A model generated the notes under the pieces. That model had not been told where the DNA came from, did no database searches, and was given only the letters and a program-made list of their open reading frames with translations. DNA of 64,000 nt, from NCBI GenBank assembly GCA_039000425.1, contig JAWBPV010000002.1:14303-78302 (forward strand). The letters are read 5' to 3'. Source of the stretch: Candidatus Aenigmatarchaeota archaeon. GTDB lineage: Archaea; Aenigmatarchaeota; Aenigmatarchaeia; CG10238-14; SCSR01. Positions within the stretch are counted from its first letter, which is position 1; each line of letters opens with the position of its first letter. Both the position numbers and the translations under genes were made by a program. Shown here in pieces: positions 3,275 through 51,500 of the stretch.

Positions 3275-3299
3275 GAATACAATTCCTTATTCAATTCTC

Positions 3300-3626: not shown

Positions 3627-3653
3627 GGGTTCACCTCTCTTCTCTTGAAGGTT

Positions 3654-3965: not shown

Positions 3966-3975
3966 TAAACATCAC

Positions 3976-4004: not shown

Positions 4005-4033
4005 TTTAGGGGATTTTGAAAAAAGGAAACTCT

Positions 4034-12579: not shown

Positions 12580-12630
12580 GTCTCACCTCCTCTTATTGAT
12601 TAATTACTCGTTTTAAACTGTTTTTCATTT

Positions 12631-13104: not shown

Positions 13105-13163
13105 ATGTACCTCCCTTCATAACGTTGCTTTAGTAAAATTAAAAATAAAATCAATAGGGAACA

Positions 13164-17143: not shown

Positions 17144-17155
17144 TATAGTTTTAAC

Positions 17156-17180
17156 CTCCTTTTCTTTTCTTATAACTTTT
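17156..17180 (-). promoter_or_regulatory. conserved early promoter/RBS module (instance 6)
   Basis: The minus strand reads AAAAGTTATAAGAAAAGAAAAGGAGG. Confidence 0.45.
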
Positions 17181-17235
17181 CTAACGCACATTTTTTTGTC
17201 ACGGAAAAACGGCTAGCTAAAAATTAATTAATTTA

Positions 17236-23850: not shown

Positions 23851-24102
23851 TTGATTTTTTGCGAAAGGTTTTTTATAATAAGGAACATGAATGATTTAAT
23901 TTCTTTATTGAAAACATCATATTTGCATGCTGACATTTCCACTTTGCCCGATACCGAGCTTCAGAGCTTGTATTCCAAACTTGTCAAGGCGTCTCAGCTT
24001 ACTCCCAATAATGTCTTAGTTTCAAAGATGCTTGATAAAGTAAATATGGAAATTGCAAAAAGGGTGCCTCAAGATAATTCTTCTGAAGGAGGAGTACTTT
24101 GA
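23851..24102 (+). CDS. small helical protein preceding beta-helix paralog B
   Basis: 83 aa. Overlaps the start of the 856-aa gene. Pattern similar to 7485..7673. Confidence 0.5.
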   Translation: MIFCERFFIIRNMNDLISLLKTSYLHADISTLPDTELQSLYSKLVKASQLTPNNVLVSKMLDKVNMEIAKRVPQDNSSEGGVL

Positions 24103-26669
24103 TTGATCTTTTTGAATCATTTTTCACTGAAGGGAAAACGATTTATTGGAGCATTAATGGTGATGACACCAATGATGGATTGAGTAGACAATCTCCCAAG
24201 CAGAGCTGGAGCGGTATTTCGGAAATTCTGGAAAATGGAGATACTGTTGTAATTCTTGATGAAATTTTTGAAGATTTTGAAGTTGCTAACAAGTATGTGA
24301 AATTTAAAGGCGGATCGTCAAAAGCCTCCATTTATGGAAGAATTACTTTGACTGGACAGAGCAAGTGTTTTTTTGAGCATTTAGTTCTAGGTTCGCCCAT
24401 TACCGTTGATAATATAGCTGTGATACTTGAAAATGTATTTGCTGGTGGGGATAAACAGTTAGTAAGCATTTGGGGAATTGCCGATTGGACTTCGGGTTTC
24501 ATTGGCATTGGGCCCGAGCAGGAACCTGTTACCATTGAGAACTATTCCGCTTTCGTTAGTGAAGATGCCTTTCAAGGAAGTTACCGCATTGTAGTTAAAG
24601 GGAACATAAACGAGGATCCTTGGACAAGAATTCGTCGGTTCACGGTAGCTAATTCAATGCCTATGTTTAAGACTTACGAAATTGTTAATTTTGAGACACA
24701 AGCGGAAACTACAATCTTAACTCTTAAAAGCCCCTTAATCTCTCCAATAACTACCGATGAAAAAATATATTTAAATTGCGTGTCCATAGACACGTCTTTA
24801 TTAAACAAAATGCATCTCAAAGGCGAGCCAATCTATGAGTTGGGAATTCATGGAAAACCACAAATTGATATAAATGCAGTATCCTTTTTTGAGCCCATAG
24901 TCGGTTTCAAAAACTGCACAATCTATTCGGATACATTTTTGGGCTTGACCTCGCCCGAATATAATTTGGCAGTTCCAGCAGCTGTGTTCAATCAATGTCG
25001 TATTCTACTTTCACTACCTGCAATTCCGTTGCTGTTAAATGATTTTGATCGCAATGGACTTTCTGCTCTGTTTAGCCAATGCATATTTTTTGTTTTTCCA
25101 TTTTCGTTAATGGGTTTAAGTTATGGTAATAGATATTGCGCATTGACGAAATTAGGTGGAGTTACTCGTTCAACTTTTATCTTTCTAAACTATTCTTCTT
25201 ATTTGAGAAATAAGTCGTGGTTGGAATCTTATGAAATAAGTAACGAGGACATATTTAAAGCTAAAGATGCGGGAAAATTCGCAATGTTCTTTAGGGAAAA
25301 CTTGTACGTTCAAGTAAAGAAATCAGAATTTTTTAAGGACGAATTTGAAATTATAGAGTTTGATACCGTTCCTAACAAGCATCCGCGAGGTGATGTATTT
25401 GAATACGCAAAAGACGAACATCCTCTATCAAGCCCAATGGAAGTTCATTGTTTCATCAGCAAAAAAGAAAAAATTGAATCGCAAACAATGACTCCTGGAG
25501 TCCTTATAGGAGATGGTGAAACAACTGAATTTGAAATTAATGTTCCTACTTTGATTTCTGCTCCTTTGGAATCTATCGAAGTTTGGGCAGATCTGAATGG
25601 TGAAGGCGTTCTCAAAAAATTAAATGTGATTGATGTGACTGAAGATTGGAAAACACCATATTTGGTGGAACAAGCTGAGAATGTTAGTTCCCCTGTTACT
25701 TTGGGAGAAGCGGCTTTTGGCGAAATCTTTATTTTTGATGGCGAGCAAATTCACCAATTCCATCGGAGACCTAATGAGATTTTGTATCGATGTGATTTTT
25801 CATTTTTTAGATTTCCTTTGATTCCATACAGGTCTATTGAATTTCCTTCCGTTGAAACTCTAGCGGGGGGCAATCCAATAAAAGTTGGAGATTATTACTA
25901 TTATTTTCTTTTAAATATGTCTCCAGAAGGAGCAGGTTTATTTAAATACACAATAAATTGCACAACTCCTTCAATTGGCGCTGATTTAATTGCTGGTTTT
26001 GCTGGAAACAAAATGAAGTTTTCGGTTGGGTGTCCTGTTTTTCTTAAGAATGGAAAAGTGATCTCAGGTGCAATACCAAATTTCACCAACCATTCAATCA
26101 TCCTTTTTGCTCATGATGTTGAAACAGGTGATTTATCTTTTGAAGAATTGAAACTGCCAGGAAAATATTTCTGGATACCAGTAATGATTAACGAGAAAGA
26201 ACTTTATTGTGTGAGATTGATATATCCAACTGATATTTTCAGTGCAATTACAGGAAAGTTAGATATCAAAACGCAAACCTTTATACCTTTGCTTCATGGA
26301 CCATATACGATTTCGCAACTGGAAAATCGCTACCTTGCATTAGGATATGATATTGATTTAGACGCAATCGTTTTAAGACGTTCCTTTAATGGAGAATCCT
26401 GGAATAGAAAGTTCATTATTTGGAACAAATCCAGTAGAAATATGTTCTGGATATGCCCGGCGAAGGAAAAAGCATATCTTTTCATATACACCCAAGATGA
26501 TCTTCTCGGATTTGAGTATACAAAAGAACGAATTGCATTCCCTGCCGACGAAGTGAAAGTTGATCGCAATAGAATGAAATTCATTTTTGAAGCTCCTCCA
26601 GTAGAAGGAACAAAAATTTATTACAATATTAAACCAATTTCAGGCAAATTGATAATAGGACTAATCTAG
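24099..26669 (+). CDS. large right-handed parallel beta-helix protein, paralog B (candidate tailspike/depolymerase)
   Basis: 856 aa. N-terminus KTIYWSINGDDTNDGLSRQSPKQSWSGISEILENGDTVVI. C-terminus DRNRMKFIFEAPPVEGTKIYY. Collinear with 4873..7488 but divergent in the middle. Confidence 0.7.
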   Translation: MIDLFESFFTEGKTIYWSINGDDTNDGLSRQSPKQSWSGISEILENGDTVVILDEIFEDFEVANKYVKFKGGSSKASIYGRITLTGQSKCFFEHLVLGSPITVDNIAVILENVFAGGDKQLVSIWGIADWTSGFIGIGPEQEPVTIENYSAFVSEDAFQGSYRIVVKGNINEDPWTRIRRFTVANSMPMFKTYEIVNFETQAETTILTLKSPLISPITTDEKIYLNCVSIDTSLLNKMHLKGEPIYELGIHGKPQIDINAVSFFEPIVGFKNCTIYSDTFLGLTSPEYNLAVPAAVFNQCRILLSLPAIPLLLNDFDRNGLSALFSQCIFFVFPFSLMGLSYGNRYCALTKLGGVTRSTFIFLNYSSYLRNKSWLESYEISNEDIFKAKDAGKFAMFFRENLYVQVKKSEFFKDEFEIIEFDTVPNKHPRGDVFEYAKDEHPLSSPMEVHCFISKKEKIESQTMTPGVLIGDGETTEFEINVPTLISAPLESIEVWADLNGEGVLKKLNVIDVTEDWKTPYLVEQAENVSSPVTLGEAAFGEIFIFDGEQIHQFHRRPNEILYRCDFSFFRFPLIPYRSIEFPSVETLAGGNPIKVGDYYYYFLLNMSPEGAGLFKYTINCTTPSIGADLIAGFAGNKMKFSVGCPVFLKNGKVISGAIPNFTNHSIILFAHDVETGDLSFEELKLPGKYFWIPVMINEKELYCVRLIYPTDIFSAITGKLDIKTQTFIPLLHGPYTISQLENRYLALGYDIDLDAIVLRRSFNGESWNRKFIIWNKSSRNMFWICPAKEKAYLFIYTQDDLLGFEYTKERIAFPADEVKVDRNRMKFIFEAPPVEGTKIYYNIKPISGKLIIGLI

Positions 26670-30021: not shown

Positions 30022-30465
30022 ATGATAAGAATAGTTCGTCTGGAAACCTTACCTTCACAGATAAGAGACGAGCTTGCAAAGCAAATTGTGCGACTTGCGG
30101 CATCAGAAGCGAGACTTTTAAACTTAACTTCTCCTAAAATGTGGAGATTGTTTTTGCGTGGTCTGTACAAACAACACACGTTTGTTCTTTTGAAAGATGG
30201 CAAAGTAATTGGTTTTGTGAACTATGGATATAACACCTTAAACTTTCCGGAATTATCATATATACGTGCTATTGCTGTAGTTAAAAATGAGCGAAATAAT
30301 GGTTATGGGAAAAAATTGCTGAGACTTGCAATAGCAAATCTTTCCTCTCCAATATGGATCGTTACACGGCTGGAGAATATAAAAATGCAGAGTCTTTTAA
30401 GAAAATTGGGATTTCAATTCTGGTTTAGGGATAAAGACAATTTAGCGTTTATTCGTTTCGATTGA
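30022..30465 (+). CDS. GNAT family N-acetyltransferase
   Basis: ...RAIAVVKNERNNGYGKKLLRLAI... matches the acetyl-CoA-binding motif A. Confidence 0.65.
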   Translation: MIRIVRLETLPSQIRDELAKQIVRLAASEARLLNLTSPKMWRLFLRGLYKQHTFVLLKDGKVIGFVNYGYNTLNFPELSYIRAIAVVKNERNNGYGKKLLRLAIANLSSPIWIVTRLENIKMQSLLRKLGFQFWFRDKDNLAFIRFD

Positions 30466-30948: not shown

Positions 30949-31303
30949 TGTTTTTTAGTTTGTCTGAAATTACTTTTAAATTGTCTTTAACTACTGTTTC
31001 TTCAACCAGTTTTGCGCCTTTTTTCCCAATCCAAATTAAAACTGGAGCCATTTCCAGCTCCGGAGACGCTCTTGAGCAAAAGACTATAGCTAATTTATTC
31101 TCGCCTGGAATAGACGTAATCCATGCTATATCGGAATAGTTTAAATCTTTTAAAAGAAAATCAATAAGATACAATTTGACACGATATACGCTTTCTGAGC
31201 CATCAAAAGATTTGCAAATAACCGTTCCTTCTGGATTTTCATTTGAATTATACAGTTGAATTGTTGTTTCGATAATATTTCTTATTTCAGTTTCCGTCCA
31301 CAT
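30932..31303 (-). CDS. hypothetical protein
   Basis: 123-aa ORF. Confidence 0.45.
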   Translation of the reverse strand: MWTETEIRNIIETTIQLYNSNENPEGTVICKSFDGSESVYRVKLYLIDFLLKDLNYSDIAWITSIPGENKLAIVFCSRASPELEMAPVLIWIGKKGAKLVEETVVKDNLKVISDKLKNNDSWH

Positions 31304-32573
31304 CCATCACCTCCTCTAGCGGTATTACCGTGCCAAATGGCACGTCTTTTTTGTCTGAGGTTGCAATCCATAATACCGGAATTGTTGGAGCGACTTCGCC
31401 AAAATCCGCTTCGAGGTCGCTTACAAATACCACGGCGTGCGCTTCAGCATGACGTTTCACAATTTCAGGAAGACTCTTGAATACTGTTCCTCCTCGGCCA
31501 CGTATTTTGATATTTCTGAAGTCAGGTTTCTCATTTTCCAGCTTCTCATAAAAGGTTTTTTGTGCGTCCATTTGATAATGATGTACAACAAAATTGGGAA
31601 ATGAATCAAGAATGTCTGCAAGCAAACCGTATGCGAAAGCCAATTCTTTCTCTTCCATACTTCCTGAGGTGTCTACAATGAATATTATATTTAGCTGTTT
31701 ATCCCTGAAGAAATTGTGCAACATACCTGTAAAATTGCTTCTTTTGGTCCATGTCAGCATTGCATTTCTTTGAATAATAAAATCGCAAAATTCTCCTAGA
31801 ATCGCTTCAACGTTAATCCTTGGTCTGAGAATTTCTTTTAGCAGTTCTTCAAGCATACCCGGACAGGTTCCTTGCTGTTTTAAACGTTGCGAAAATTGCA
31901 CAAGTGCAATAAATGTTCCCGAACATGCTTGAGAATTAGAATCGCTTGATAAATTTGGCACTTCTAAATGGTCCTTTGGAGTAAAGATGTTATTTCCATT
32001 TAGGACTAAAAACACTCTTCCCTGCGAATCAACCACTACAAAAGAATTTCCCATTTGTTTCGTTTTATATTTTCTTTTCAACTTTTCATAAACTTCTTCG
32101 ACCGAACAATTATCATAGCTGCGATCATGCACTTCTGGATATAATTCAAAAGGTTCAATTTCCGATTTTCCATCTCTTTGGAATGCTGGCAATTCGGAAA
32201 ATTTCACACAGATTTTGTCTACCACAATGTCCATAGCCATTGCCCATAATGGATCCATAAAAATCTTTTTCAATTTTGAACGAAATCCATGAAATAGTGC
32301 TATGTGAAGCAGTTCATGCAATAAAAGATATGCAACTTTCGCTTTGGCACGCTGTTTTTCAAATTTATTTATATACTCGGGATTGCATTCAACAACCATT
32401 TGTCCATGTTCAAGATGCACGGAAGCAATTGGAGGTGCAAAAGTTCCCGAAATAATTGCATCTAAAGCTAAATCTTCTTTTGAATACAGTTTAATGATCA
32501 TTCCTGCAATATCTCCAGCGAATTCGGGCAAAAGACGAATCAATGAAGTTTTTGCTATACTTATTATCTTCAT
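31287..32573 (-). CDS. VWA-domain protein with HExxH metallopeptidase-like N-domain (MoxR partner), copy 2
   Basis: 428 aa. LLHELLHIALFHGF and MIDAS motif IIFIVDTSGSMEEKE. Same architecture as 14758..16131 but divergent sequence. Confidence 0.75.
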   Translation of the reverse strand: MKIISIAKTSLIRLLPEFAGDIAGMIIKLYSKEDLALDAIISGTFAPPIASVHLEHGQMVVECNPEYINKFEKQRAKAKVAYLLLHELLHIALFHGFRSKLKKIFMDPLWAMAMDIVVDKICVKFSELPAFQRDGKSEIEPFELYPEVHDRSYDNCSVEEVYEKLKRKYKTKQMGNSFVVVDSQGRVFLVLNGNNIFTPKDHLEVPNLSSDSNSQACSGTFIALVQFSQRLKQQGTCPGMLEELLKEILRPRINVEAILGEFCDFIIQRNAMLTWTKRSNFTGMLHNFFRDKQLNIIFIVDTSGSMEEKELAFAYGLLADILDSFPNFVVHHYQMDAQKTFYEKLENEKPDFRNIKIRGRGGTVFKSLPEIVKRHAEAHAVVFVSDLEADFGEVAPTIPVLWIATSDKKDVPFGTVIPLEEVMDVDGN

Positions 32574-33694
32574 GTTTTTATGTCTAACAGTTCAAGCACA
32601 TCTTTCAACTTTTTATTATCAATTATATGCCAGAACTTTTCCATGGGCAGCTTTCTGTAAACGAGAATACTCAGTCCGAACACCATCAGTTCTTTTGGTG
32701 GGATTGTGGTTTTTTCATCCCATTTCGTCCATGCTATTTTATGCATTACATCTACTGCGTTTTTTAAGGCTTTAATGTCATTCAGAGGGGCATTCTGAGC
32801 AATTGCAGATACAGCGATGACTGCTTGTCTGGAATTGGCTATATTTGGCACAATTCCCTTTGTATAAACTGCATTCAAATCCAGCATCATCTTTAGAGCA
32901 TCATTCTGTATGAAAGCTTCAAATTGTGTGCCTGCACTGATCCCCACAGTAGAAGAAAATACGGCAAGACGTACTTCGGGATTTAGTTTCATTGCATGCC
33001 CAAGATCTCTGCTAAGCATTTCCCAAGCACGTGGACATGGAAAAGGCATTTCTGGATTTAATTTTGCATAGTCATAATTTGCAAAGTAAGAAGGATAGAG
33101 CTTCAGGAAGCTGATAATTTCCGATGCTATATTATTTGGAACAGCAAAGTTCTTTACCCAAGTATCGAAATCGGGATGAACATGGATAATTCTGAATCTG
33201 CTTCTCAAAGGTTCGGACAGCTGATGAACAAATGCGAAAGTCTTTTTGGAATTGCCTGCGGCAACAATCATATAGTTTTCGCCTAACTTATGCGGTCCAA
33301 TTGTTCTTGTGTAAACTAGCTGTAATGCTGCATTCAGAACTTCTTTAGTTGCACAATTCAGCTCATCCAGAAAAAGAATGCCTCTTTCAACATTGTTGGT
33401 TGGAAACAAATCTTCGGACGGTTTAAACCATTCAACCTGTTTTTTCTCAAAAATAGGAACTGCAAAACCTCTTAAATCGGAAGGATCTATTATCAAATGG
33501 AGAGGCGCTATTACCAATTTTGCATTAAATTCGTCGGCAAGTTGCTGAACAATTGCAGTTTTACCAACGCCTGGAGGACCATAAATGAAGCAAGCAGCTT
33601 TGCTAATTCCTTTCCAGAAATTAACCATATTGAATCTTAACCATTCCTTTGCTATCGCTATATTTACGCTATATTCCTGGGCTGTTTCAGTCAT
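32570..33694 (-). CDS. MoxR-like AAA+ ATPase, copy 2
   Basis: Walker A IYGPPGVGKTA and Walker B ILFLDELNCATKEVL. Overlaps the VWA gene (ATGA). Confidence 0.8.
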   Translation of the reverse strand: MTETAQEYSVNIAIAKEWLRFNMVNFWKGISKAACFIYGPPGVGKTAIVQQLADEFNAKLVIAPLHLIIDPSDLRGFAVPIFEKKQVEWFKPSEDLFPTNNVERGILFLDELNCATKEVLNAALQLVYTRTIGPHKLGENYMIVAAGNSKKTFAFVHQLSEPLRSRFRIIHVHPDFDTWVKNFAVPNNIASEIISFLKLYPSYFANYDYAKLNPEMPFPCPRAWEMLSRDLGHAMKLNPEVRLAVFSSTVGISAGTQFEAFIQNDALKMMLDLNAVYTKGIVPNIANSRQAVIAVSAIAQNAPLNDIKALKNAVDVMHKIAWTKWDEKTTIPPKELMVFGLSILVYRKLPMEKFWHIIDNKKLKDVLELLDIKT

Positions 33695-34313
33695 TCTTTT
33701 CCTCCTTTAGTAGTTTTAGTTGTAAGTGTTTTTTTCTTTGATAGATTAATCTTTCTCGGTGCCAGAAAGACATTTTCTTTGTTGCTTCATCAAAATGCCT
33801 TCTTGAATAATAGCCTTTGTTTTGTTTCCAATTGTATTCTGGATAAAATGGATGTAATAGTTCCATGAATTTATCTCTAAATATTTTCGCAAGAATTGAT
33901 GCGGCGGAAACTTCACGTATAAATTCATCTGCTTTTGGCATTGCTATGATTTCCAAAGATTTGATCTCATCGTAAATTGCTGAATCATGTTTCTTGAAAT
34001 AATCTTTAGGATTATTTTTTCCGTCAATAATAATTCTTTCATTTGGCTTCACGTTTAACTCTTTTAATGCGAGATATGCACCAAGCATTACCGCATCAAC
34101 CAAACTGCGATGCAGAACAAATTGTGGAAATAAAATGATGATAGAATAATCAATTTGAGCTTCAATTAACTGTTTTCCTATTTCTAAACGTTCTTGAGGT
34201 TTCAATTGTTTTGAATCTTTAACTTCAATCTTTCCAGGAATTGGTCCTCTAGTCGCTCCAATGACAATAGGACCGGCGATTGCGGAAAGTCCTACCTCGT
34301 CTATTCCGACCAT
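33687..34313 (-). CDS. rnhB: ribonuclease HII
   Basis: MVGIDEVGLSAIAGPIVIGA. DSKQLKPQER. IIDG. MPKADEFIREVSAASILAKIFRDKFM. YPEYNWKQNKGY. Confidence 0.85.
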   Translation of the reverse strand: MVGIDEVGLSAIAGPIVIGATRGPIPGKIEVKDSKQLKPQERLEIGKQLIEAQIDYSIIILFPQFVLHRSLVDAVMLGAYLALKELNVKPNERIIIDGKNNPKDYFKKHDSAIYDEIKSLEIIAMPKADEFIREVSAASILAKIFRDKFMELLHPFYPEYNWKQNKGYYSRRHFDEATKKMSFWHRERLIYQRKKHLQLKLLKEEKND

Positions 34314-34547
34314 TGAGTTTTATCCTCCTTTTTCTACTTAAAATTTTTCCGTATTTAATCTGCTGATTGTTTTGAAATGAATTATTTATTTGTTCTGTGC
34401 CAGAATCCGGAAATCTGTGATCAAACCATTCCTTGAGAATGTTCCATGATGATACAAGATCAGCTTTTATTTTTTCTCGATTAAATTCTTTCTCAAGCCA
34501 ATCTATAAAATCATCAAAAAGTTGCACAATTCCATGATAAAAATGCT

Positions 34548-34703
34548 TTATTTTGGTGATGATTTTCTTTTTATCCATCTCAGCACCACATACGCGGTGA
34601 TAGCGCATCCTGCAATAACCATAATAACTCTTACAAATTTAAACGCAATTGCAGATAAAAATAAAATTACTGCAATGATTAACCATTTTGTAGTATCACT
34701 CAT
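34548..34703 (-). CDS. small membrane protein (51 aa)
   Basis: ATG 34703 sits 5 nt after GGAGG within the conserved module 34709-34733 (MSDTTKWLIIAVILFLSAIAFKF...). The alternative track ORF 34249..34608 in another frame is less well supported. Confidence 0.4.
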   Translation of the reverse strand: MSDTTKWLIIAVILFLSAIAFKFVRVIMVIAGCAITAYVVLRWIKRKSSPK

Positions 34704-34746: not shown

Positions 34747-35220
34747 TTAGGATTCCCGAATCGCTCTCCGAAGAATCACCACGTAAGGTACCGTATAAGA
34801 GGCTGCCGATAACAGAAAAGCTGGAATTCCCTTTAGTGGAGAGAATCCCAGCCTTTTCATAATAGGAAACGCTCTTAAAGAAGCCATATATTCCTCGAGC
34901 AAAGTAGGGGTCATAAGTATAGGTAGATATTTTTCATATTCTTCCTTTCCTGTAATTTTTAGGACTGGATAACCGATTATTCCCGCATGAAATAATAGAG
35001 GAAAAGGAATATGTTTTTCAATTGGACGAAGGAAACTTCGAGCATGCCCAAATTCGTGAGCAGCTACAAATGCAGTAAAAGGTCCTCTGATGCGGGGAAT
35101 TTCAATTATATGTCGTGTTGGGTCATAGGCCGCTTCAAGCGGTTCCTTTACATATACTATCTTTGGCCACTTGGCAAGCCTGCGTTCTCTTAGTAATCTT
35201 GCAGCTAAACTTAATCGCAT
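34747..35220 (-). CDS. putative zinc metallopeptidase (HEFGH motif)
   Basis: 157 aa. ...FVAAHEFGHARSF... Confidence 0.5.
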   Translation of the reverse strand: MRLSLAARLLRERRLAKWPKIVYVKEPLEAAYDPTRHIIEIPRIRGPFTAFVAAHEFGHARSFLRPIEKHIPFPLLFHAGIIGYPVLKITGKEEYEKYLPILMTPTLLEEYMASLRAFPIMKRLGFSPLKGIPAFLLSAASYTVPYVVILRRAIRES

Positions 35221-35684
35221 GAGTAAAATACCACTGCACTAAGAACACAAGTGTATAATTTTGAAGAAGTTTTTGTTGTTGCGATTTTATAAAAACGTTG
35301 CTTGGGAAGCTTTCGGTTGTTAATCCTAAATATTTCATTTAGGCAATATTTCAATCGACGAAAGCACTCTTTACTATTCATTGCACCTTCCACTTCCACG
35401 ATATAACCATGTTGTTTTGGACTTTCCGCGAGCATAATTCCCGCTGAGATATAAAAAGGATTTTTGGTGGGTTTTTCAATGTGCTTACTCAATACGCAAA
35501 ATAGAATCTCCCCACCAGGCAAAGCGTTAAGTTCGTCAATATTTCCGCGCTTACAATCAGCAGGCAAAATACTCGAAACGGGAACAAGATTAAATTTATT
35601 TATCTTTGCGTTTTTTAGAGCTAATTCAAATGCAATTAAAGGTTCTTTTGATCTGCCTATTCCCGAAGATAAGATATATTTCAC
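35211..35684 (-). CDS. pdaD: pyruvoyl-dependent arginine decarboxylase proenzyme (PdaD family)
   Basis: 157 aa. PLIAFELALKNAKINKFNLVPVSSILP parallels the M. jannaschii PdaD block [27 protein letters not shown], including the Ser-Ser self-cleavage site. Confidence 0.7.
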   Translation of the reverse strand: MKYILSSGIGRSKEPLIAFELALKNAKINKFNLVPVSSILPADCKRGNIDELNALPGGEILFCVLSKHIEKPTKNPFYISAGIMLAESPKQHGYIVEVEGAMNSKECFRRLKYCLNEIFRINNRKLPKQRFYKIATTKTSSKLYTCVLSAVVFYSCD

Positions 35685-35685: not shown

Positions 35686-36360
35686 TCAACGTCTTCGTAA
35701 TTTTGTCAATAATTCATTCAATTTTGCCAATGCAGAATATATAGCAGAATATGCATATGGAGAACTTAGAGCTCCTGCAACCGCACCTAGAATCAGAGGG
35801 AGCTTTCTATAACGAAATACTAAAGTTGGAGCCCTTCCAATACCAGCTCGAATAGGAACAACTTGAGGAGACATTAATCCTCGAGCAATCAATGCTCCAA
35901 GTCCCGCTCGCGTGCCAATATGGAACGCAGGATATATATATGCAATTAAAGGCTGTCTAGGAGCTTCATCTTTATCTTTAGCTCTTCCTTCTTTAATAGA
36001 TGATTCCTTTGCATGGGCAGAAGATTTACCTTCAGAAGATTTGTCTTTAGAAGGTTCCTTTTTAAAGAATTCTGCCAAATATTTTCTAACGGATGGTACT
36101 GCTAAAGTTCCTGCAAGTCCTCCAACAATTAACGGCCAATAAGGATAGCGCAATATTGGCTGGGCTCCCCGAAGCATTTGCCAACGTGTTGGCATCAGAA
36201 CTTGTGGACCCACCAATCCCCGCATTGCCAAAGCGCCCGCAACTGGATAAGCATAGGGAAGATATGTATGGAACGTTCTCAGGCCACTTATAATCTTCTG
36301 AAGTACTTCTACCCAATCTGGTGTTTTTTGCGCTTGAGCTATTTTTAATAAGTGAGTCAT
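35686..36360 (-). CDS. glycine-zipper repeat protein (two copies of a ~60-aa GALxxRGLxxP...LRYP.WPL..GG module)
   Basis: 224 aa. The module occurs at residues ~35-95 and ~150-215. Paralogous to the repeat modules in 36376..37437. Confidence 0.55.
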   Translation of the reverse strand: MTHLLKIAQAQKTPDWVEVLQKIISGLRTFHTYLPYAYPVAGALAMRGLVGPQVLMPTRWQMLRGAQPILRYPYWPLIVGGLAGTLAVPSVRKYLAEFFKKEPSKDKSSEGKSSAHAKESSIKEGRAKDKDEAPRQPLIAYIYPAFHIGTRAGLGALIARGLMSPQVVPIRAGIGRAPTLVFRYRKLPLILGAVAGALSSPYAYSAIYSALAKLNELLTKLRRR

Positions 36361-36375: not shown

Positions 36376-37437
36376 TTATTTTGGTCTGAACCAAGGATAA
36401 TACAATCCACCAAGAATCAAAGCTGCTTGCACCTCAGGAAGAAGCAAAGCGCCTAAAGTTGCACCTAAGAGCATAGGTAACTTTCTATAACGAAGTCTTA
36501 TAGGCTCAAATCTTCCTCTAGGAATAACTACAGTAGGACGAGTAAATCCTCTTGCAATTAAAGCTCCCATAGTAGGATATGCTATTATGCGAAGCATGTC
36601 CCGAGCTGCTTCGCTGGAGGCAGGCATGCTAGATCCTTTCCAAAGAATTCCTCTTCTTTCTAAAATTTCTCCTAGTCCTCTTACACGCGTGCCCAATCCA
36701 TAGATACCACGGCCAAGAAGTCTCAAAACTTTTTGCTTAAAAGTGGGAGGAGGGGGAGGAGGAGCTGGAGTCATATATCCTTCTACTGGAGTAAAAGGCC
36801 CTCCTGCCAAAAATTCCAACTCTTTAAGTGTTTCTTCAGAGGGTAATGGAGCAGCTCCAGGTGGCAAAGCTATTTCTGCAGGAGGTGGGGGAGGAGGTGG
36901 AGGAGGTTCTACCGCTGCAGGAGGTGGAGGAGGCGCTACAGCCGCAGGAGGAGGCTCTACCACTGCAGGAGGTGGAGGAGGAGGCGCTACAACTGCAGGA
37001 GGCGGAGGAGGCGCTACAGCCGCAGGAGGAGGCTCTACCACTGCAGGAGGTGGAGGCGGAGGCGACGGTGCTGCTTCTGGCGGAGTTGGACGTTCGAAAA
37101 GCCCTTTTACTAATCTTTTAATTCCGGGAACAACTCCAGGAACAAACAAAGTTCCGAGAGCTCCTCCAACTAGAAGAGGCCAGATTGGATATCTCAACGT
37201 GGGGCGCATTCCACGTAGTAATTGCAAACGTGTTGGCATTACTAGCCTGGGACCAACCAAGCCTCTTAGCGCTAAAGCACCTATGGCAGGACTGAAATAT
37301 GGAAGGGCTTGATAAAATTCCCGCAAAAAAGGAGGAGGTGTAGGAGGAATAGGAGGAGGTGGAGGTGGCGGTTTTTTCTTCTTACCAAAAATGAATTCCC
37401 ACACGTTTTCAAGGAATCCTATTTTCGTTACATCCAT
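36376..37437 (-). CDS. proline-rich protein with two glycine-zipper modules and a central (PPPPAVVEPPPAAVA)n repeat
   Basis: 353 aa. N-terminus KKKKPPPPPPPIPPTPPP. Central ~70 aa are almost pure P/A/V/E. The module pair flanks the repeat. Confidence 0.6.
   Translation of the reverse strand: MDVTKIGFLENVWEFIFGKKKKPPPPPPPIPPTPPPFLREFYQALPYFSPAIGALALRGLVGPRLVMPTRLQLLRGMRPTLRYPIWPLLVGGALGTLFVPGVVPGIKRLVKGLFERPTPPEAAPSPPPPPPAVVEPPPAAVAPPPPPAVVAPPPPPPAVVEPPPAAVAPPPPPAAVEPPPPPPPPPAEIALPPGAAPLPSEETLKELEFLAGGPFTPVEGYMTPAPPPPPPTFKQKVLRLLGRGIYGLGTRVRGLGEILERRGILWKGSSMPASSEAARDMLRIIAYPTMGALIARGFTRPTVVIPRGRFEPIRLRYRKLPMLLGATLGALLLPEVQAALILGGLYYPWFRPK
36880..37095. repeat. GC-rich tandem repeat (78-nt higher-order unit duplicated) encoding the poly-Pro/Ala tract
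   Basis: gcgctacagccgcaggaggaggctctaccactgcaggaggtggagg... at 36933 recurs at 37011. About 60% GC within a ~35% GC genome. Confidence 0.6.
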
Positions 37438-37860: not shown

Positions 37861-39276
37861 ATGACATTTTTAGTTCTAGGAAGCGGAGCTGATATACAAT
37901 TGCTGAAACAATTAAGAGATGAAGGAAACAAAGTTTACTATTGGCTTCCTCAGAAATTTTGGTCGGAATGGGATGAATTGTTTAAAGAATGGGAGGTTAA
38001 TTGGATAAAAGAATCCGAATTAAGAATTCCACATGACGTTGATATTGTCGTATACACTTTTGTTGGAGCTAGAGAACTAGCTGATAAAGTTTCCAAAAAT
38101 TATCCTTTCTTTGGAGCGGACAGCCGCATGCAAGAATTAGAGCTAAATCGTGAGCTGGGCAAAAAAGTGATGCAAAAATTAGGAATAAAAATTCCTCGAC
38201 GTTTCTCAAGCAACATAGATGTTGCAATAGAAACAATAAAACGAAACAAAAAGCCTATGGTTGTAAAGCCTTATAATAATCTCCCAGTATACACAACGGC
38301 TGTTCCATTTACCTATGAGGATTCAATTGTTATCTTAGAAAAAATTAAAAAGCATTTTCCAAATGCAACTGTACTTTGTGAAGAAAAAATAAACGGAGTT
38401 GAAGTTGGAATTGAAACATTTTTTGATGGAGAAGATTTTCTCTACCCAATTAACGTCAGTTTCGAGCATAAACCCGCCTATGAGCTGGATCAGGGGCCTT
38501 TGACTGGCGAAACTGGAACTTTAATGTTTTATGAAAACAGTCCATTATTCTATGAAACTCTGAATAGAGCTAAAGAATTGTTCAGGAGACTAAATTATCA
38601 TGGAGATATTTGCATTGGGCTGATTGTAGATATGGAGACGAAGATTCCTTACGGATTGGAATGGACTTGTCGTATGGGATATCCTGAGATTCTGATTCAA
38701 ATCAACGCTCTTAAGATAGAATTGGGACAGCTTATTTATAACACAGTATTTCCACAGCCCCAAAAAGAAATGCCGGTAGATGATATTTTTCTCACAGGCG
38801 TCGCTTTAATGGGGGGAGGTTCTCCCTTTGAAATGACTTATAAGCAATATGGGCGTGGATTTATGATTCATGGATTGGATGAACTTGAGGATGGTATACC
38901 AGTCATTAGTAGAACAATGATAGCTTCTGCTTCTTATAAAAATGGTAAATTCTTCACAGGCGAATATGATGATCGTCCATTGGTTATAATTGGCAAAGGA
39001 TATACTGCTTATGAAAGTATTATAGATGCCTATAGGTTCATGCGTCACGTTAAATGCATGAATGCTTTTTATAGAACCGACATTGGAGTCAAATATGTCA
39101 CACACGATTCAAAGTTCCTCTACGAATGTGCGTACATAAACAGAGATCACTTTGTAAGGAGTTATTTGCCCGAGTTTGATCCAAGATTAACTCTATTGAA
39201 AACAAAAATTATGGAAATAAAAAAAGAAGGAGGCTTGAAAGAATGGTTAATTGGAAATGCTCTATTCCGATCTTAA
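37861..39276 (+). CDS. PurD-like (glycinamide ribonucleotide synthetase-like) ATP-grasp ligase with C-terminal extension
   Basis: LVLGSGADIQL N-terminus. EEKINGVEVGIETFFDG...EHKPAYELDQGPLTGETGTL (cf. the PurD DHKR...GPNTGGMGA block). GLIVDMETKIPYGLEWTCRMGYPE (cf. EFNCRFGDPE). Confidence 0.65.
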   Translation: MTFLVLGSGADIQLLKQLRDEGNKVYYWLPQKFWSEWDELFKEWEVNWIKESELRIPHDVDIVVYTFVGARELADKVSKNYPFFGADSRMQELELNRELGKKVMQKLGIKIPRRFSSNIDVAIETIKRNKKPMVVKPYNNLPVYTTAVPFTYEDSIVILEKIKKHFPNATVLCEEKINGVEVGIETFFDGEDFLYPINVSFEHKPAYELDQGPLTGETGTLMFYENSPLFYETLNRAKELFRRLNYHGDICIGLIVDMETKIPYGLEWTCRMGYPEILIQINALKIELGQLIYNTVFPQPQKEMPVDDIFLTGVALMGGGSPFEMTYKQYGRGFMIHGLDELEDGIPVISRTMIASASYKNGKFFTGEYDDRPLVIIGKGYTAYESIIDAYRFMRHVKCMNAFYRTDIGVKYVTHDSKFLYECAYINRDHFVRSYLPEFDPRLTLLKTKIMEIKKEGGLKEWLIGNALFRS

Positions 39277-39340: not shown

Positions 39341-41131
39341 ATGGAAACTCTAATTTATAAAACAACTCCTATCGTGTTTTTCAACGAACATGCGGTCAAA
39401 AATGTAGTAAGTGTAACTGTAACTTATCAGATTAATCGTTTCGCTCGAGCAATTATAGCTTTACCTGCAGTATCCGCACTACTTGATCTACCATTTTTGA
39501 CACATATTCGTGTTGGGGCCAAAATTGAAACAGGAAAAGGTTCCTGGGACATCTGGCTCGTTGATGGATTTCCCGAACAAATTGTCAAACGAGATCCGTA
39601 TGTTTTCATAACAATAGTAGATAAACATTACATTTTAGACACTATTCCTTTAATAGGATTAGAAGATCCTATGCGAGCTGCAGTCATGAGTTCTATTTAT
39701 GGAGATGGAATAATTAACATTGCATTACCTGGTGCTTCTTCCATAAACCAATGGCTTAATTGCTCCGACTGGGTATCTTCACAAGACATGACAGTACAAT
39801 TTAAAGAATTGGTCGAAGAACGCATAACCAACTATCTTTCTGATTTTATTAAAACACATCAAATATATGGCCTTTACCCTTTCATAGATCCAGCAATTGA
39901 TAGAAATTTTTTGGATGCTCAATTATCTCTAAATGTGATAAATAGGCTCAATGTTTTCTCGGGGGATTCAGTCTGGACTCTTATACGACAGGTTATTACA
40001 ACTCTGACGGGTTATCAGTTTATACCTATTCCAATCAAGATGTTAGGAATAGAAGAAAGCGCAAAAGGAATGTCTGCTGTAATTTATTGCTCACTGATAA
40101 CCTTTCCAGTTACCACAGGAGCAACTCCAAAAACGCAAGTTGTCCCTCTTCATTTTTACAACTATTCTTTTTCTGCAGATAAAACTCGTAATGTTACAAG
40201 AATGGTTCTATATAATTTTGTAGGAATGCCTTTACCCTCTACATCGGAAGATATATCATCGGGAACTGAATCATCAGGATGGTTTCTATTAGTGCCTAGA
40301 GAGCTTCACAACGGATTCAAAGGGGAAGTTCAAGCGTCAAGAGAAGAACAAATATGTGTTCCAATTATATACAAAACAATGACATATGAAGAAGTTTGCG
40401 ATGGGATTATCACGGACATATCGTCAATAGATCTCCCACTATACAACGTCTATCAGGTTCACTCCAGTGAAAGTCCTTTGAAAGGACAGGATCTGGAAAA
40501 AACAATGCAATTATGTCTGGACAAGGCCGAGTTAGAGTTTAAACTTAAGAAACTCCAGTTTCGGACATTAACGTTGCGAGGTATTTTTTCTCCTTTTCTG
40601 GTTTGTGGAATGCCTCTAATTGCAGTAGAAAAAAGACAACCTTTAAGTTTCTTTCAGGGAATTCCTTTTCAAATTATTCATGAAATTAGTGATAGAGGTG
40701 CAGTTTCAACAATTGATTGTGGCTATGCTTACTATTGGGAAGAGTTTTCCGAGAAAACTTCACGAGGACTTCCTGGACGGTTTGCGGTTTTCCCTTGGGG
40801 AAATCTGTCAACAGATGAAAAATTGATATTACCACGTACTACAGTGAAAAGCTGGAATGATTTTGTAAAGACTATTTTAGGCACAGATTGCTTGTCAAAA
40901 AATGTAAAGGAAGTAATTGAATATTTAAAAAGCATTTTAAGCATTTCGCTTGAAGGTTTTTTTGGCAGATGCGCAAACTTCGCAAAGACGATAGGAATCG
41001 CAGATAGGCATAAATTTAGCGAATCACAAGTAAAAATTGTTGATGTACCATTAAATGCAAAACCGAGACAAGAGCTGGTCAAAAATATTGTGAACTTATT
41101 GAATGCAGCGGAGATTATAGAACTAAAATGA
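39341..41131 (+). CDS. hypothetical large protein (possible virion component)
   Basis: 596-aa ORF. No recognised motif. Confidence 0.55.
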   Translation: METLIYKTTPIVFFNEHAVKNVVSVTVTYQINRFARAIIALPAVSALLDLPFLTHIRVGAKIETGKGSWDIWLVDGFPEQIVKRDPYVFITIVDKHYILDTIPLIGLEDPMRAAVMSSIYGDGIINIALPGASSINQWLNCSDWVSSQDMTVQFKELVEERITNYLSDFIKTHQIYGLYPFIDPAIDRNFLDAQLSLNVINRLNVFSGDSVWTLIRQVITTLTGYQFIPIPIKMLGIEESAKGMSAVIYCSLITFPVTTGATPKTQVVPLHFYNYSFSADKTRNVTRMVLYNFVGMPLPSTSEDISSGTESSGWFLLVPRELHNGFKGEVQASREEQICVPIIYKTMTYEEVCDGIITDISSIDLPLYNVYQVHSSESPLKGQDLEKTMQLCLDKAELEFKLKKLQFRTLTLRGIFSPFLVCGMPLIAVEKRQPLSFFQGIPFQIIHEISDRGAVSTIDCGYAYYWEEFSEKTSRGLPGRFAVFPWGNLSTDEKLILPRTTVKSWNDFVKTILGTDCLSKNVKEVIEYLKSILSISLEGFFGRCANFAKTIGIADRHKFSESQVKIVDVPLNAKPRQELVKNIVNLLNAAEIIELK

Positions 41132-41904
41132 CATTGCCGAAACAGGAAAAAGAATTATTGCTATGGAAAGAATGGCGTCGTACAGGAGACGAAGAAAAAC
41201 TGGAAGAGTTGATGAACAGCTTACGTCCTCTCATAATGACTGCAGTGAACAAATGGAAAGGAAATCTTCCTCAAGATATTTTAACTTTTCAAGCAGAAAA
41301 TTTAGCACTAAAAGCATTACATACTTACGATCCAAAGAAAAAAGTTGCTCTTTCTACGCATGTTATGAATAATTTGTTGCCATTGTCTCGTTTTGTATAT
41401 ACACATCAGAACATTGGAAGAATTCCTTCAGAAGTGCGTATTGCAAAAATAAATACACTAAAAACGGCAATTGAGGAGTTTCAGGCTAAATATGGTAGAT
41501 ATCCAAATGCCGAAGAACTTTCTGATACCCTAGGCATGTCCCCCAAGCAAATTCAGAAGTTTTTCAAAGAATTGCATCCCGACTTATTGGAATCCTATGC
41601 GATTGCCCCTATTGCTGTAAAAATGGATCCTCAAACTGAGATGATTGTAGATCAATTCTACTCGTCATTGTCGCCAATTGATAAGTTCATTTTTGAGCAT
41701 TCCGTGGGCTATAAAAACAAGAAAAAGTTAACTATACGGGAAATTGCCACTAAATTAAATAAAAGTACCTATGAAGTTCTACAACGAAGAGAGGAAATAG
41801 CTCGCAAACTTTCAGAATTTATAGAACAGTATGAAAAAGCTGGGATTTCATTTGAAAGAAAACGAATATCCGCTTCAATTGAATCGCTACTGGAGGAAGA
41901 ATGA
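41128..41904 (+). CDS. sigma-70 family RNA polymerase sigma factor (phage-encoded)
   Basis: Region 2-like LRPLIMTAVNKWKGNLPQDILTFQAENLALKALHTYDPKKKVALSTH. Region 3-like RYPNAEELSDTLGMSPKQIQKF. Region 4 HTH LTIREIATKLNKSTYEVLQRREEIARKL. Confidence 0.7.
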   Translation: MTLPKQEKELLLWKEWRRTGDEEKLEELMNSLRPLIMTAVNKWKGNLPQDILTFQAENLALKALHTYDPKKKVALSTHVMNNLLPLSRFVYTHQNIGRIPSEVRIAKINTLKTAIEEFQAKYGRYPNAEELSDTLGMSPKQIQKFFKELHPDLLESYAIAPIAVKMDPQTEMIVDQFYSSLSPIDKFIFEHSVGYKNKKKLTIREIATKLNKSTYEVLQRREEIARKLSEFIEQYEKAGISFERKRISASIESLLEEE

Positions 41905-48529: not shown

Positions 48530-51500
48530 ATGGATTTCAAAAAGTATATAGCTGATAGAGACTTTTACTCAGCTGAAACTGCAAATTATCCACAATATCT
48601 TTTGATTGGAGATGGTCTGCTTTCTATACCATTGATAATTGTAGATAGAAATAATCTCTATGTATATATATCGCCATTTGAATTCATTCAGAATGGTACA
48701 ATCTGCAAGATGCTTAAAATGCAAAAAGTAAAATGCAGTCAATTGGAAACAGGAAAAACTTATTATCTCTGCGTGGACGTGAATACCACTTCAGATAACA
48801 ATCCTCCCAGATTCTATGTTCTAGAGAGAATATTGCCAGGTTTATTACTAATTGCAGAATTGGTAATTTTAGAAACTGATGTTAAAATCAATTATCCACA
48901 GATTGTTCATTATAAAGGATTACGGGAAAGCACAAAGGAAGCATTTGATACGGAAGTTCAAGTTCAAGGATATCTTTACTATGATAAAGATAATAATGTT
49001 ATAATTGGCGAAGATGTAACTTTAAGATATGGAATCGATGTTTTTAAATTCGAAAGAATTCATTTTAAACCAATTCTTTTTCCAGAAATTCCAGCAGATA
49101 TAATTCCAAACCATTTAATTATATGGGACAGGGAATTTTGTCAGATTCCTTGGTCGGCATTTTTAGCAAATAATATAACACAGGAATATAACTACGTTTC
49201 GAGTTTTTGCGACAGCACAACCGTTATCCTTCCAGCCTATAATAGAATACTTCATTTTCACTGCGCGCAAGAGTTATACAATCCTCATTACGCTAGTATC
49301 TCATTATGGTCGGAAACGCTTTCGTATCCACCTCATTCACATGAATTTCAACTATTTGCAGAGACATCTATAAAACTCAAAAGCAGAGATAATATTGTTG
49401 TTGGAGTTTCGACTACTACCGCTGTACATGGAGGATTTATTTTCAGAAGATTTATAGTAGAAAGTCCAACTTCAGTTTCAATTAATTATGATACTTATTA
49501 TTTTGCTGAAGATAGTTCCAATATTAGATATAATTTTGCAATTGACGACACAAAACTTTATTTAATCTTTAGAAGAACTGTAGGATTAACACCATATGTA
49601 GAAATTTTAAAATGGGATTACATGCAATTTGGAGCTAAAACTGTTAAATCTTACCCTGGAATGGAAGCTACAGACGTTTATATTTGGTATGATCAAGAGC
49701 TATTGCATTGCTTTGTTTATAATGAATCTGATCAAACACTCATGCATTTCATTTTATCTGCTTCAAGCCTTGCAGAAATAAAACCACCCTCTGTATTCAT
49801 TCAACCTTGTTATAGACCTTTTCCAATAGTGCACAAAGGAAGATTTATGCTTGCATATCAAACCTCTGCGGATTCACCTTTGTACTTCTTTGACGGATCT
49901 CGTATTCGTACAATAGACGAAACTCCAGGAAATTTTCAATTTGGATTTCAAGAAGGGATATTACTTGTATGTAATCCTTCTACTGGAAAAATTTATAAAG
50001 TCTATTTGGACAAGATAATTGAATTTCCTGCTCCTAGTGGACAAGAGCACTTGTTGAGAATTTCGGCACTAGGAGCTGTATGGGATACTGCCAGAGATAC
50101 TTCGACCACTCCACATAAAACGCGCTTAGTTCTAATTTCTGAAAAAAACTTAGAAATACCAAATTATTTGCCTGTTATTGGAGCAGTTCATGCAAGCCAA
50201 AATAATCCAGCTTTCCTCCCAAATAAACCAATGGGGCATGTTGTCATTGGCGATCCGGCTTTGCTACATGAAGCCGAATTGAATATAGATAAATTATACG
50301 AATATATCACACAAAATGCAGATGGTTCATATACAGAAGTTGAAATTAGAGGTAAATTAAGAGTAAGACCAGGAACTGTTTTTCCTAGACTAAAACTTTC
50401 TGGTGGTGAATTAATAACTGATAGATTGCGTACGACTTCTGTAATCTCAAATACACAATATAGCTCAGATGATCAGAAAACTTTTCAATTGCTAAACACT
50501 ACTTTACAGGCGCATGGTATCTGTCCAGGGACTATAATACAAAGAGAGAATTTCACACAACGAGTAGTAACTATAGATATAACAAATAGAAGATTTACAC
50601 TTGATGCTCCATTAGGAGGGAGTTCTTCTTCGCCTTTGAATGTTCGAAATGATATTGTCTTAGAAAATATGACGATTCGGCATCCGCAATCTACAGGAGT
50701 CGTTACAGGAGATAATTTAAAAATAAAGAATAGTGAATTTTTGAATGATTTAATTGTGTCCGGAGGAATGATATATGCTACAAACAGTAATTTTAAATAT
50801 GTAAGCGCAAGCAACTCTCATGTAGGATTTTATGCCTGTAATTTAGAAAATATACAGCTTTTAGGAACGATTCCTTCATATTACATTATGCAATCTTTTG
50901 TAGGCACTTCATTAACTAATACAATCAGAGGTTCTACAAAAATTGAAAATTTTAACTATCCAAATAATAGATTTGTCTGGCTAGGTGGCGACACACCATT
51001 ACAAATATACACTTCAGGCACAGATAATGTTACATCAATATCCAGCTATACTCACGCGTCTACCACGACCGCTTGCGGCACTTACAGTAAAGTTTATTCT
51101 GAACGCGTAGCAATAGGGAACACACTTGAAATTACCGCTTCTAGAATTCCTCCAAGCACTGCTTACGGAATATATATGAATATTGATGCTCCATATGCAT
51201 ATGGACTTCATCTTTCAAGTAGTCCAAATGATCAAACCACAGGCCTTTTTATTCGAAGCAATACAGGAGCTATAATTTCTGGAATAACTCAAGGCATCTA
51301 TGCATATGGATCTTCCTATGGAGGACGTTTTGTAGCGCCTAATACAGGTCTCTATGTTTCTGGACTAATAGCAATAGAAACGAATGCAACTGGAACTTCT
51401 GCTAAAGGAGTATCAATTTCAGTCACAGGAAATAGTAGCTATGGAATTTATGCCAATGTTAGTGGAGCTGGAACTAGAGGAATCCACGCAAGTGCTATAG

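Follow-up and report, generated by a model that had tools for sequence, protein, structure and literature searches.

Does the DNA examined here carry a pyruvoyl-dependent arginine decarboxylase gene on a phage genome, and what could such an enzyme supply during infection? The DNA is a stretch of 64,000 nucleotides (nt) deposited under Candidatus Aenigmatarchaeota archaeon (GenBank assembly GCA_039000425.1, contig JAWBPV010000002.1, positions 14,303 to 78,302 of the forward strand) and is referred to below as the window; coordinates are those of the window unless another contig is named. The gene in question, pdaD, occupies positions 35211 to 35684 on the minus strand. It starts with GTG, ends with a stop codon at positions 35211 to 35213, and encodes a 157-amino-acid (aa) pyruvoyl-dependent arginine decarboxylase proenzyme (PdaD) that matches Pfam family PF01862. 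It is considered likely that this gene encodes a functional, divergent, short-form PF01862 arginine decarboxylase and serves as an auxiliary metabolic gene of a large, very divergent tailed bacteriophage.

The 157-aa product was called independently in three Logan assemblies and in the NCBI record of the metagenome-assembled genome (MAG), where a protein of identical sequence bears the name [quoted passage not shown] and belongs to a contig of 113,831 bp. The GC content of pdaD (0.354 overall and 0.291 at third codon positions) equaled the means of 67 open reading frames (ORFs) in the window (0.359 and 0.304, respectively), which indicates that the gene is neither a chimeric insert nor a recent import. 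With this native codon composition and the tight spacing to its neighbors, pdaD is a resident gene of the replicon.

Comparison of the window PdaD with the PF01862 (PvlArgDC) profile gave a score of 113.1 bits (E = 1.5e-32; curated gathering cut-off, 22.7), and the match was full-length, covering residues 2 to 153 and profile positions 4 to 160 of 161. When PDB sequences were searched with phmmer, only the Methanocaldococcus jannaschii PvlArgDC was matched (entries 1n2m and 2qqd; E = 4.5e-6), with its Asn47, Ser52, Ser53, and Glu109 paired with Asn32, Ser37, Ser38, and Glu97 of the window protein. An AlphaFold2 model built from a 40-sequence alignment had a mean predicted local distance difference test score of 91.5 and a predicted template modeling (TM) score of 0.85. 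Comparison of this model to the PDB with Foldseek produced 12 significant matches, every one a chain of the M. jannaschii enzyme; the top matches had TM scores of 0.87 to 0.89 and root mean square deviations of 1.5 to 1.9 Å (0.89 and 1.5 Å for the best), and the next match had an E value of 0.07. The S-adenosylmethionine decarboxylase (AdoMetDC) fold, entertained as another identity for the protein, was ruled out: PF02675 (AdoMetDC, SpeH/SpeD) gave no match at E ≤ 0.01, and AdoMetDC chains were absent among the top 50 Foldseek matches in the PDB.

Residue conservation was assessed in an alignment of 115 sequences, comprising the window PdaD, the M. jannaschii protein (MJ0316), and 113 homologues of 140 to 200 aa from an exhaustive HMMER search. 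All 17 columns conserved in at least 90% of sequences were retained in the window PdaD (G8, G10, F19, A22, L23, A26, N32, L33, V34, V36, S37, S38, I39, P41, G58, G93, and E97). Ser38 and Asn32 were each present in 115 of the 115 sequences, Ser37 in 113, and Glu97 in 108. M. jannaschii Asp35, which we take to contact the guanidinium group of the substrate, corresponds to Glu20 in the window protein, which is the majority state at this position (E in 83 and D in 27 of 115). Residues 32 to 41 form the peptide NLVPVSSILP, in which the Ser37-Ser38 codons (35571 to 35576, minus strand; aligned to M. jannaschii Ser52-Ser53) mark the predicted site of autocatalytic serinolysis. The codons for Asn32 (35589 to 35591, minus strand), the equivalent of Asn47 in processing or catalysis according to the alignment to 1n2m and 2qqd, and for Glu97 (35394 to 35396, minus strand), the equivalent of Glu109, are likewise in place. 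The carboxylate of Glu109 facilitates both cleavage and decarboxylation (PMC2720952). Self-cleavage can fail through one substitution away from the catalytic residues, as in AaxB of Chlamydia trachomatis, where a Gly-to-Arg change abolishes it (PMC2720952); the window PdaD has Ile95 at that position of the 115-sequence alignment. Family membership is secure, with every strongly conserved position kept, and the conserved residues argue strongly for arginine as the substrate. Both points on which the PdaD-type call of the original prediction could have failed were checked: the cleavage serine is retained within a well-conserved proenzyme block around VSSILP, and only PvlArgDC chains, not AdoMetDC, matched the fold significantly.

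The nature of the carrier was examined over about 84 kb, that is, the window plus 10 kb past each end as reached through Logan contigs, with Pfam searches of window ORFs of at least 90 aa. The decisive marker is a gene on the plus strand (57120 to 59915) predicted to encode a phage portal protein interrupted by a LAGLIDADG intein, as indicated by Pfam intein matches and by the homology of the spliced extein. The 617-aa extein was similar to proteins of three Vibrio phages of about 187 kb (E = 6e-38) and to the portal protein gp204 of Salmonella phage Arash (E = 2e-34), with 23 to 24% identity over about 75% of the extein. In purified Arash virions, proteomics identified Gp204 with 93% coverage (PMC10585845). 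The intein itself comprises 314 aa (residues 381 to 694), includes a LAGLIDADG homing-endonuclease domain, and has clean boundaries (C...HN/S); the portal was recognizable only once this intein had been spliced out in silico. The sole PHROG match to a terminase in the window (residues 603 to 705 of the portal ORF) fell inside the intein and was discarded as spurious.

Other genes on the replicon were consistent with a phage of bacteria. These included ORFs predicted to encode an SLT lytic transglycosylase, a peptidoglycan hydrolase (1051 to 1536, minus strand; PF01464, E = 2.1e-14; PHROG lytic tail protein and transglycosylase families), a Peptidase_M15 cell wall hydrolase, and a sigma-70-family factor (41128 to 41904, plus strand; Pfam region 3; PHROG sigma factor, E = 4.5e-13; NCBIfam FliA/SigB-like). 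The window also encodes a family A DNA polymerase (PolA) with a 3'-5' exonuclease, a uracil-DNA glycosylase (UDG)-superfamily protein, and RuvC, and the 10-kb extensions add DnaB, a DnaG-type primase, a LigD-like ligase, and a PD-(D/E)XK nuclease. No tRNA gene was found in the window, and no ribosomal, tRNA-synthetase, or archaeal information-processing family was among the Pfam results for the 84 kb, whereas genuine archaeal pdaD loci do carry such cellular information-processing and housekeeping genes. Judged from this gene content and above all from the portal homology, the carrier is a very divergent tailed bacteriophage with a large genome (at least 114 kb), and the SLT and M15 proteins, the sigma factor, and the bacterial-type replication genes suggest that its host is most likely a murein-walled bacterium. 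That pdaD is phage-borne, as originally proposed, is upheld by these markers.

PF01862 proved to be widely distributed, and the original description of the family as mainly archaeal, with few bacterial homologues, had to be abandoned. A motif scan of GTDB with one genome per species, run with a 10-sequence alignment since the 40-sequence alignment was too diverse, revealed at least 591 PF01862 homologues. The best 80 included many bacteria, such as Bacteroidota, Chlorobi, Ignavibacteria, Deltaproteobacteria/Thermodesulfobacteriota, Planctomycetes, Verrucomicrobia, and the candidate phyla radiation (CPR)/Patescibacteria, including Saccharibacteria; no other phage gene was common to the window and any of these 80 loci. 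A short form of about 150 to 165 aa, to which the window PdaD belongs, was found in M. jannaschii, DPANN archaea, Archaeoglobi, and Thermoplasmata, and a long form of about 180 aa accounted for nearly all bacterial and some archaeal PF01862 proteins. The best named relatives of the window PdaD were those of Nanobsidianus (39% identity), an Aenigmatarchaeota MAG (38%), and Nanopusillus (35%).

Copies on other phage-like contigs were also recovered. None of three different PF01862 queries matched any of the 50,697 phage genomes on deposit. Scanning 2.9 million IMG/VR contigs with the family motif, an approach that can miss divergent copies, revealed three PF01862 carriers (L088, L089, and L090); single-sequence IMG/VR probes with PdaD, the portal extein, the ATP-grasp protein described below, and the sigma factor were all empty, and only the family alignment found these carriers. 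L088 encodes a tail sheath protein, DnaB, a bacterial-type RecA, and a short-form PdaD 50% identical to that of P0006 (L085/L086; L085 is ENA ERZ650669 NODE_550, 52.7 kb), where PdaD and the end of a fused RNA polymerase beta/beta' gene share 4 nt. L089 (IMGVR_UViG_3300029288_000060, 268.8 kb) and L090 (IMGVR_UViG_3300005573_000104, 60 kb) carry PF01862 proteins of the long, bacterial-type form that are 57% identical to each other. On P0019 (L087, the 38.7-kb contig JGI 3300023440 Ga0256750_1000171), the neighborhood was homologous to that in the window, with four genes in common: a GNAT acetyltransferase (41% identity), PdaD (37%), the sigma factor (53%), and a PurD-like ATP-grasp protein (50 to 56%). 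A weak RNase HII match adjoins PdaD on L087 at the place equivalent to that in the window. The Nanobsidianus cluster P0005, P0007 (with a histone and RadA), P0013, P0014, and P0017 had cellular contexts, mostly clearly archaeal. Short-form PdaD is thus present in at least three phage backgrounds, and PF01862 occurs in four or more groups of phage-like contigs that differ in type. Since both short and long forms occur on viral contigs, phages have acquired PF01862 at least twice, the long form indicating an independent second event.

Several features of these contigs were recorded alongside. The fused beta/beta' polymerase of L085 is a single chain of 1995 aa (1172 to 7626 of that contig), with an RVT_1 reverse transcriptase upstream and a GpA-type terminase downstream. 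L090 carries homologues of the window PolA and UDG within 6 kb of its PdaD. On L087, the ATP-grasp homologue (12222 to 14009) is itself split by an intein, and GNAT and PdaD (together at 5196 to 6149) diverge from a 48-bp intergenic region. This adjacency hints at a functional link between the two, such as acetylation of agmatine or polyamines.

Phylogeny was assessed by bootstrapped neighbor-joining only, and the window PdaD lay on a long branch. Its sister was never a labeled bacterial sequence. With the IMG/VR copies included, the sisters were L088 (28/60), P0006 (28/60), P0017 (24/60), Thermoplasmata (21/60), P0019 (17/60), and M. jannaschii (15/60), and the placement was unstable, with a best sister frequency of 47 to 52%. 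On the question whether the gene branches with archaeal or bacterial PdaD, raised in the original prediction, labeled bacterial sisters did not occur, and no stable position emerged. This suggests an archaeal-type protein, loosely grouped with short-form archaeal enzymes and with the copies on three other phage-like contigs; with an unstable, weakly supported placement on a long branch, an archaeal origin is suggested and not established.

By homology to the M. jannaschii enzyme, the proenzyme would cleave itself between Ser37 and Ser38, yielding a predicted beta chain of residues 1 to 37 (about 4 kDa) and a predicted alpha chain of residues 38 to 157 (about 14 kDa), with Ser38 converted to the pyruvoyl cofactor at the N terminus of the alpha chain; the chains would assemble as (alpha-beta)3. 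The pyruvoyl group would form a Schiff base with L-arginine and, with the assistance of Glu97, CO2 would be released to give agmatine. Infection may in this way raise agmatine in the host cell, where a host agmatinase, or agmatine deiminase with N-carbamoylputrescine amidohydrolase (NCPAH), could convert it toward putrescine and spermidine. Alternatively, agmatine may act directly as a dication; either route would support condensation and packaging of phage DNA as well as translation. Supply of agmatine to the host polyamine pathway is a likely auxiliary metabolic role, proposed with moderate confidence by analogy to the AdoMetDC-derived pyruvoyl arginine decarboxylases (ADCs) of other phages, which have been shown to be active, whose phages lack downstream enzymes, and which have been proposed to feed host agmatine-to-putrescine enzymes (Li et al., PNAS 2023, PMC9992855).

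A number of observations weigh against this reading. In the part of the contig covered (about 84 of 114 kb), neither a terminase nor an HK97-fold capsid protein was recognized by Pfam or by PHROG (the latter applied to 19 ORFs, including all large ones), and tblastn of an 890-aa and a 1293-aa ORF (61220 to 63892 and 48530 to 52411) found no match in the 50,697 phage genomes. The nearest cellular homologues of the window PdaD are archaeal, which is odd for a bacterial host. Its scores fell short of both NCBIfam equivalog cut-offs (TIGR00286, 93.6 against 106.95; NF009064, 97.9 against 207), which marks it as a divergent member and keeps arginine as substrate at a strong inference. Structural alignment gave 20 to 22% identity to M. 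jannaschii PvlArgDC, the one solved enzyme. Among 1.84 billion cluster representatives, there were 553 matches at E ≤ 1e-3 and 44 at E ≤ 1e-10, and the best non-self identity was 39%, leaving the protein a sequence orphan. With 20 to 22% identity to the M. jannaschii enzyme and at most 39% to anything else, the substrate specificity could have drifted. Finally, no agmatinase, agmatine deiminase, NCPAH, spermidine synthase/aminopropyltransferase, or AdoMetDC was among the Pfam results for these 84 kb of the 113,831-bp contig, so that the agmatine-consuming enzymes for which the original prediction had advised a search did not turn up in this region.

That specificity did drift is judged unlikely. 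On this explanation, the PvlArgDC fold would still self-cleave and the substrate would have changed (to ornithine, lysine, or another basic amino acid), or the protein would be catalytically dead and serve another purpose. We know of no PF01862 member with a substrate other than arginine, and literature searches brought up none. Both serines, Asn32, Glu97, and an acidic residue at the Asp35 position are kept, and the fold model is confident and nearly identical to the active M. jannaschii enzyme. The shortfall at both isofunctional cut-offs and the long branch of a protein so distant from any homologue would fit a changed substrate, as would the precedent of phage AdoMetDC homologues that have switched to arginine or ornithine (PMC9992855); a dead enzyme would accord with the loss of AaxB cleavage through single substitutions (PMC2720952).

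It is quite improbable that the carrier is a virus infecting DPANN or other archaea, with the enzyme supplying agmatine to a biosynthetically poor host. Agmatine is essential for archaeal synthesis of agmatidine, and agmatidine (agm2C34) on tRNA-Ile2 is needed to read AUA, a codon that makes up 31% of the isoleucine codons in the window. The virus would then provide for both polyamines and AUA decoding. If this were true, the enzyme would have been captured from the host lineage, agmatine would be the sole polyamine precursor, and the virus would manipulate the decoding capacity of its host, boosting AUA decoding, through a small-molecule precursor. Binning with an Aenigmatarchaeota MAG could reflect a coverage and k-mer signature common to virus and host, and in the neighbor-joining bootstraps PdaD groups with archaeal short forms and never with labeled bacterial ones. 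The sigma-70 factor, the SLT and M15 hydrolases, the bacterial-type RuvC, DnaB, DnaG, and PolA, and the similarity of the portal to Vibrio and Salmonella phage proteins point instead to a bacterial host, and the short-form carrier L088 has bacterial-type RecA and DnaB. In a weaker variant with a bacterial host, agmatine would possibly be an end product that is packaged as a counter-ion or used as a donor in DNA or protein modification, and the co-conserved GNAT and PurD-like ATP-grasp genes would possibly act together with PdaD.

It is very improbable that the gene is simply the pdaD of a DPANN (Candidatus Aenigmatarchaeota) chromosome, with no virus involved. The name under which NCBI lists the identical protein would agree with such a reading, as would the DPANN and other archaeal identity of the best named relatives listed above and a length of about 157 aa, typical of archaeal enzymes. 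A phage portal homologue, sigma-70, family A polymerase, RuvC, DnaB, DnaG-type primase, and peptidoglycan hydrolases would be unexpected in a DPANN chromosome, the housekeeping families seen at genuine archaeal pdaD loci are lacking from the 84 kb, and neighboring genes have relatives on other phage-like contigs. The archaeal label of the deposited contig probably reflects misbinning of a viral sequence into a public archaeal MAG.

Acid resistance of the kind conferred by AaxB, the best-studied bacterial PF01862 enzyme, in which AaxA and AaxC complement proton-consuming decarboxylation with arginine:agmatine exchange (PMC2720952), is extremely improbable because no antiporter is present: no transporter, porin, or amino acid antiporter family was among the Pfam results for the window ORFs or the 10-kb extensions, and the other PdaD-carrying phage contigs have no transporter either.

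For the phage-borne arginine decarboxylase, the immediate gene neighborhood offers some context. In 5'-to-3' order on the minus strand lie two paralogous proline-rich genes, pdaD, an ORF with an HExxH motif, a 51-aa hydrophobic ORF, RNase HII (33687 to 34313; PF01351, E = 3.7e-25), a MoxR-type AAA ATPase, and a DUF2201 VWA/metallopeptidase gene. Most of these neighbors overlap or lie a few bases apart; the exception is the 234 nt separating RNase HII from the 51-aa ORF, a gap that would be filled by an uncalled ORF of 119 aa (34249 to 34608). Directly 5' of pdaD is a gene for a 224-aa protein (35686 to 36360, minus strand), which has no family match and is paralogous to the gene at 36376 to 37437. 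Its stop codon ends one base before the pdaD start (TGA-G-GTG), a spacing that suggests translational coupling of the two genes. On the 3' side, a 157-aa HEFGH protein (34747 to 35220, minus strand), possibly a small metallopeptidase, overlaps pdaD by 10 nt. The original prediction had placed pdaD downstream of this ORF and of RNase HII; the genes are on the minus strand, so pdaD is upstream of both. Its RNase HII call stood, and its call of a small peptidase stood in part: the HExxH motif is present, and the match to Pfam Zn_peptidase_2 was subthreshold (17.3 bits against a cut-off of 27; E = 0.0037), with no PHROG or NCBIfam match. A scan for consensus promoters and terminators around pdaD gave counts equal to the shuffled expectation and was uninformative, so the operon inference rests on spacing.

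Two of the genes co-conserved with pdaD on L087, those for GNAT and the ATP-grasp protein, lie to either side of it in the window. The GNAT acetyltransferase gene (30022 to 30465, plus strand; PF00583; tblastn to the L087 homologue, E = 3e-26) is about 5 kb from pdaD. It could not be assigned as a spermidine/polyamine acetyltransferase, as typing produced only a generic, weak RimI-like NCBIfam match and no PDB sequence match. The PurD-like ATP-grasp protein (37861 to 39276, plus strand) has GARS_A and GARS_C domains, scored far under the purD equivalog cut-off, and was 23 to 27% identical to phage and bacterial PurD proteins, which was uninformative; the 50 to 56% identity to the L087 homologue, itself split by an intein, suggests an important ligase function.

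Additional observations were made on the surrounding genes. The tandem paralogues upstream of pdaD (35686 to 36360 and 36376 to 37437, both minus strand) contain long proline/alanine-rich repeats (PPPPPAVVEPPPAAVAPPPP...) without a family match, carry twice-repeated hydrophobic motifs (ALA[LM]RGLVGP..MPTR.Q.LRG ... RYRKLP..LGA), and cause a local rise in GC content (0.44 against 0.35). A two-gene module that is unusual in a phage, with a MoxR-type AAA+ ATPase followed by a DUF2201_N metallopeptidase-like and VWA-like (DUF2201) protein, is duplicated in the window (16109 to 17191 with 14758 to 16131, and 32570 to 33694 with 31287 to 32573, both copies on the minus strand). The UDG-superfamily gene (20388 to 21365, minus strand), located close to the family A DNA polymerase gene (17874 to 19793, minus strand), encodes an unusually long protein of 325 aa, with about 160 extra C-terminal residues that match no family. 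A TnpB/Cas12f-like protein (10266 to 11357, plus strand; TNB domain, E = 3e-16) is encoded on the opposite strand inside a minus-strand block and probably represents an insertion of the IS200/IS605 type into the phage genome.

Most large ORFs in the window had no Pfam or PHROG match, and a megablast search with 24 kb of the window found no match in the 50,697 phage genomes. Four ORFs of 856 to 1293 aa had no Pfam, NCBIfam, or significant PHROG match (48530 to 52411, 61220 to 63892, and 24099 to 26669 on the plus strand and 4873 to 7488 on the minus strand). Given their position near the portal gene, as in Arash, some of these large ORFs might encode extremely divergent virion RNA polymerase subunits or tail proteins. 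For the 890-aa and 1293-aa ORFs, identification as polymerase subunits like those beside the Arash portal found no support, and the tblastn searches against phages were empty.

What is new here is the kind of carrier for a known enzyme family; the chemistry and the auxiliary metabolic logic are already established. Finding PF01862 in no fewer than four groups of phage-like contigs, representing at least two lineages (short and long), strengthens the view that agmatine or polyamine supply limits phage replication. An archaeal-type short-form enzyme in a phage with otherwise bacterial-looking genes suggests interdomain transfer. At 157 aa, the window PdaD is small and easy to express, which makes it suitable for testing self-processing and specificity in so divergent a PvlArgDC, and the locus draws attention to a viral contig that was probably misbinned into a public archaeal MAG.

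Comparison with known systems places the window gene and its carrier as follows. The only cultured relatives detected for the carrier, by way of the portal, are Arash and Vibrio phages D181, D148, and D69, which are myoviruses of about 180 to 187 kb. Arash also encodes sigma factors, as the window phage does, and within a 25-kb Arash segment no window ORF other than the portal was matched. These four phages were among the 50,697 deposited genomes in which no PF01862 match was found, and a full-text literature search combining pdaD, PvlArgDC, or PF01862 with viruses found no report. M. jannaschii PvlArgDC (MJ0316; PDB 1mt1, 1n2m, 2qqc, and 2qqd) has the Pfam family, the four-layer alpha-beta-beta-alpha fold, and the length of about 160 aa in common with the window PdaD; it differs in having Asp35 where the window protein has Glu and in coming from a hyperthermophilic methanogen, whereas the window protein comes from a mesophile-like, AT-rich phage. 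AaxB is of the longer PF01862 form. This chlamydial enzyme is likewise a pyruvoyl arginine decarboxylase of PF01862, in the bacterial world, and requires self-cleavage for activity (PMC2720952); it works with a dedicated porin and antiporter (aaxABC), none of which was found near the window PdaD.

Among viruses, chlorovirus PBCV-1, like the window phage, encodes an arginine decarboxylase that gives agmatine as an entry to polyamines. The PBCV-1 enzyme is pyridoxal 5'-phosphate (PLP) dependent and derived from ornithine decarboxylase (ODC), and it belongs to a eukaryotic virus that also has agmatine iminohydrolase (AIH), NCPAH, and homospermidine synthase, whereas the window decarboxylase stands alone in the 84 kb. 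Functionally closest to the window gene are the decarboxylases of pelagiphage HTVC201P and related phages (PMC9992855), which are small, self-processing pyruvoyl enzymes that form agmatine from arginine. Their fold is that of AdoMetDC/SpeD (PF02675) and is non-homologous to the window PvlArgDC (PF01862), and the survey of Li et al. (PMC9992855) reports no PF01862-type viral enzyme; the M. jannaschii protein appears there only for comparison with a cellular enzyme. Viral arginine decarboxylases were thus already known on two folds, the PLP-dependent ODC-like fold of chloroviruses and the AdoMetDC-derived pyruvoyl fold of pelagiphages, and the window gene adds a further non-homologous fold that phages have recruited, presumably for the same reaction.

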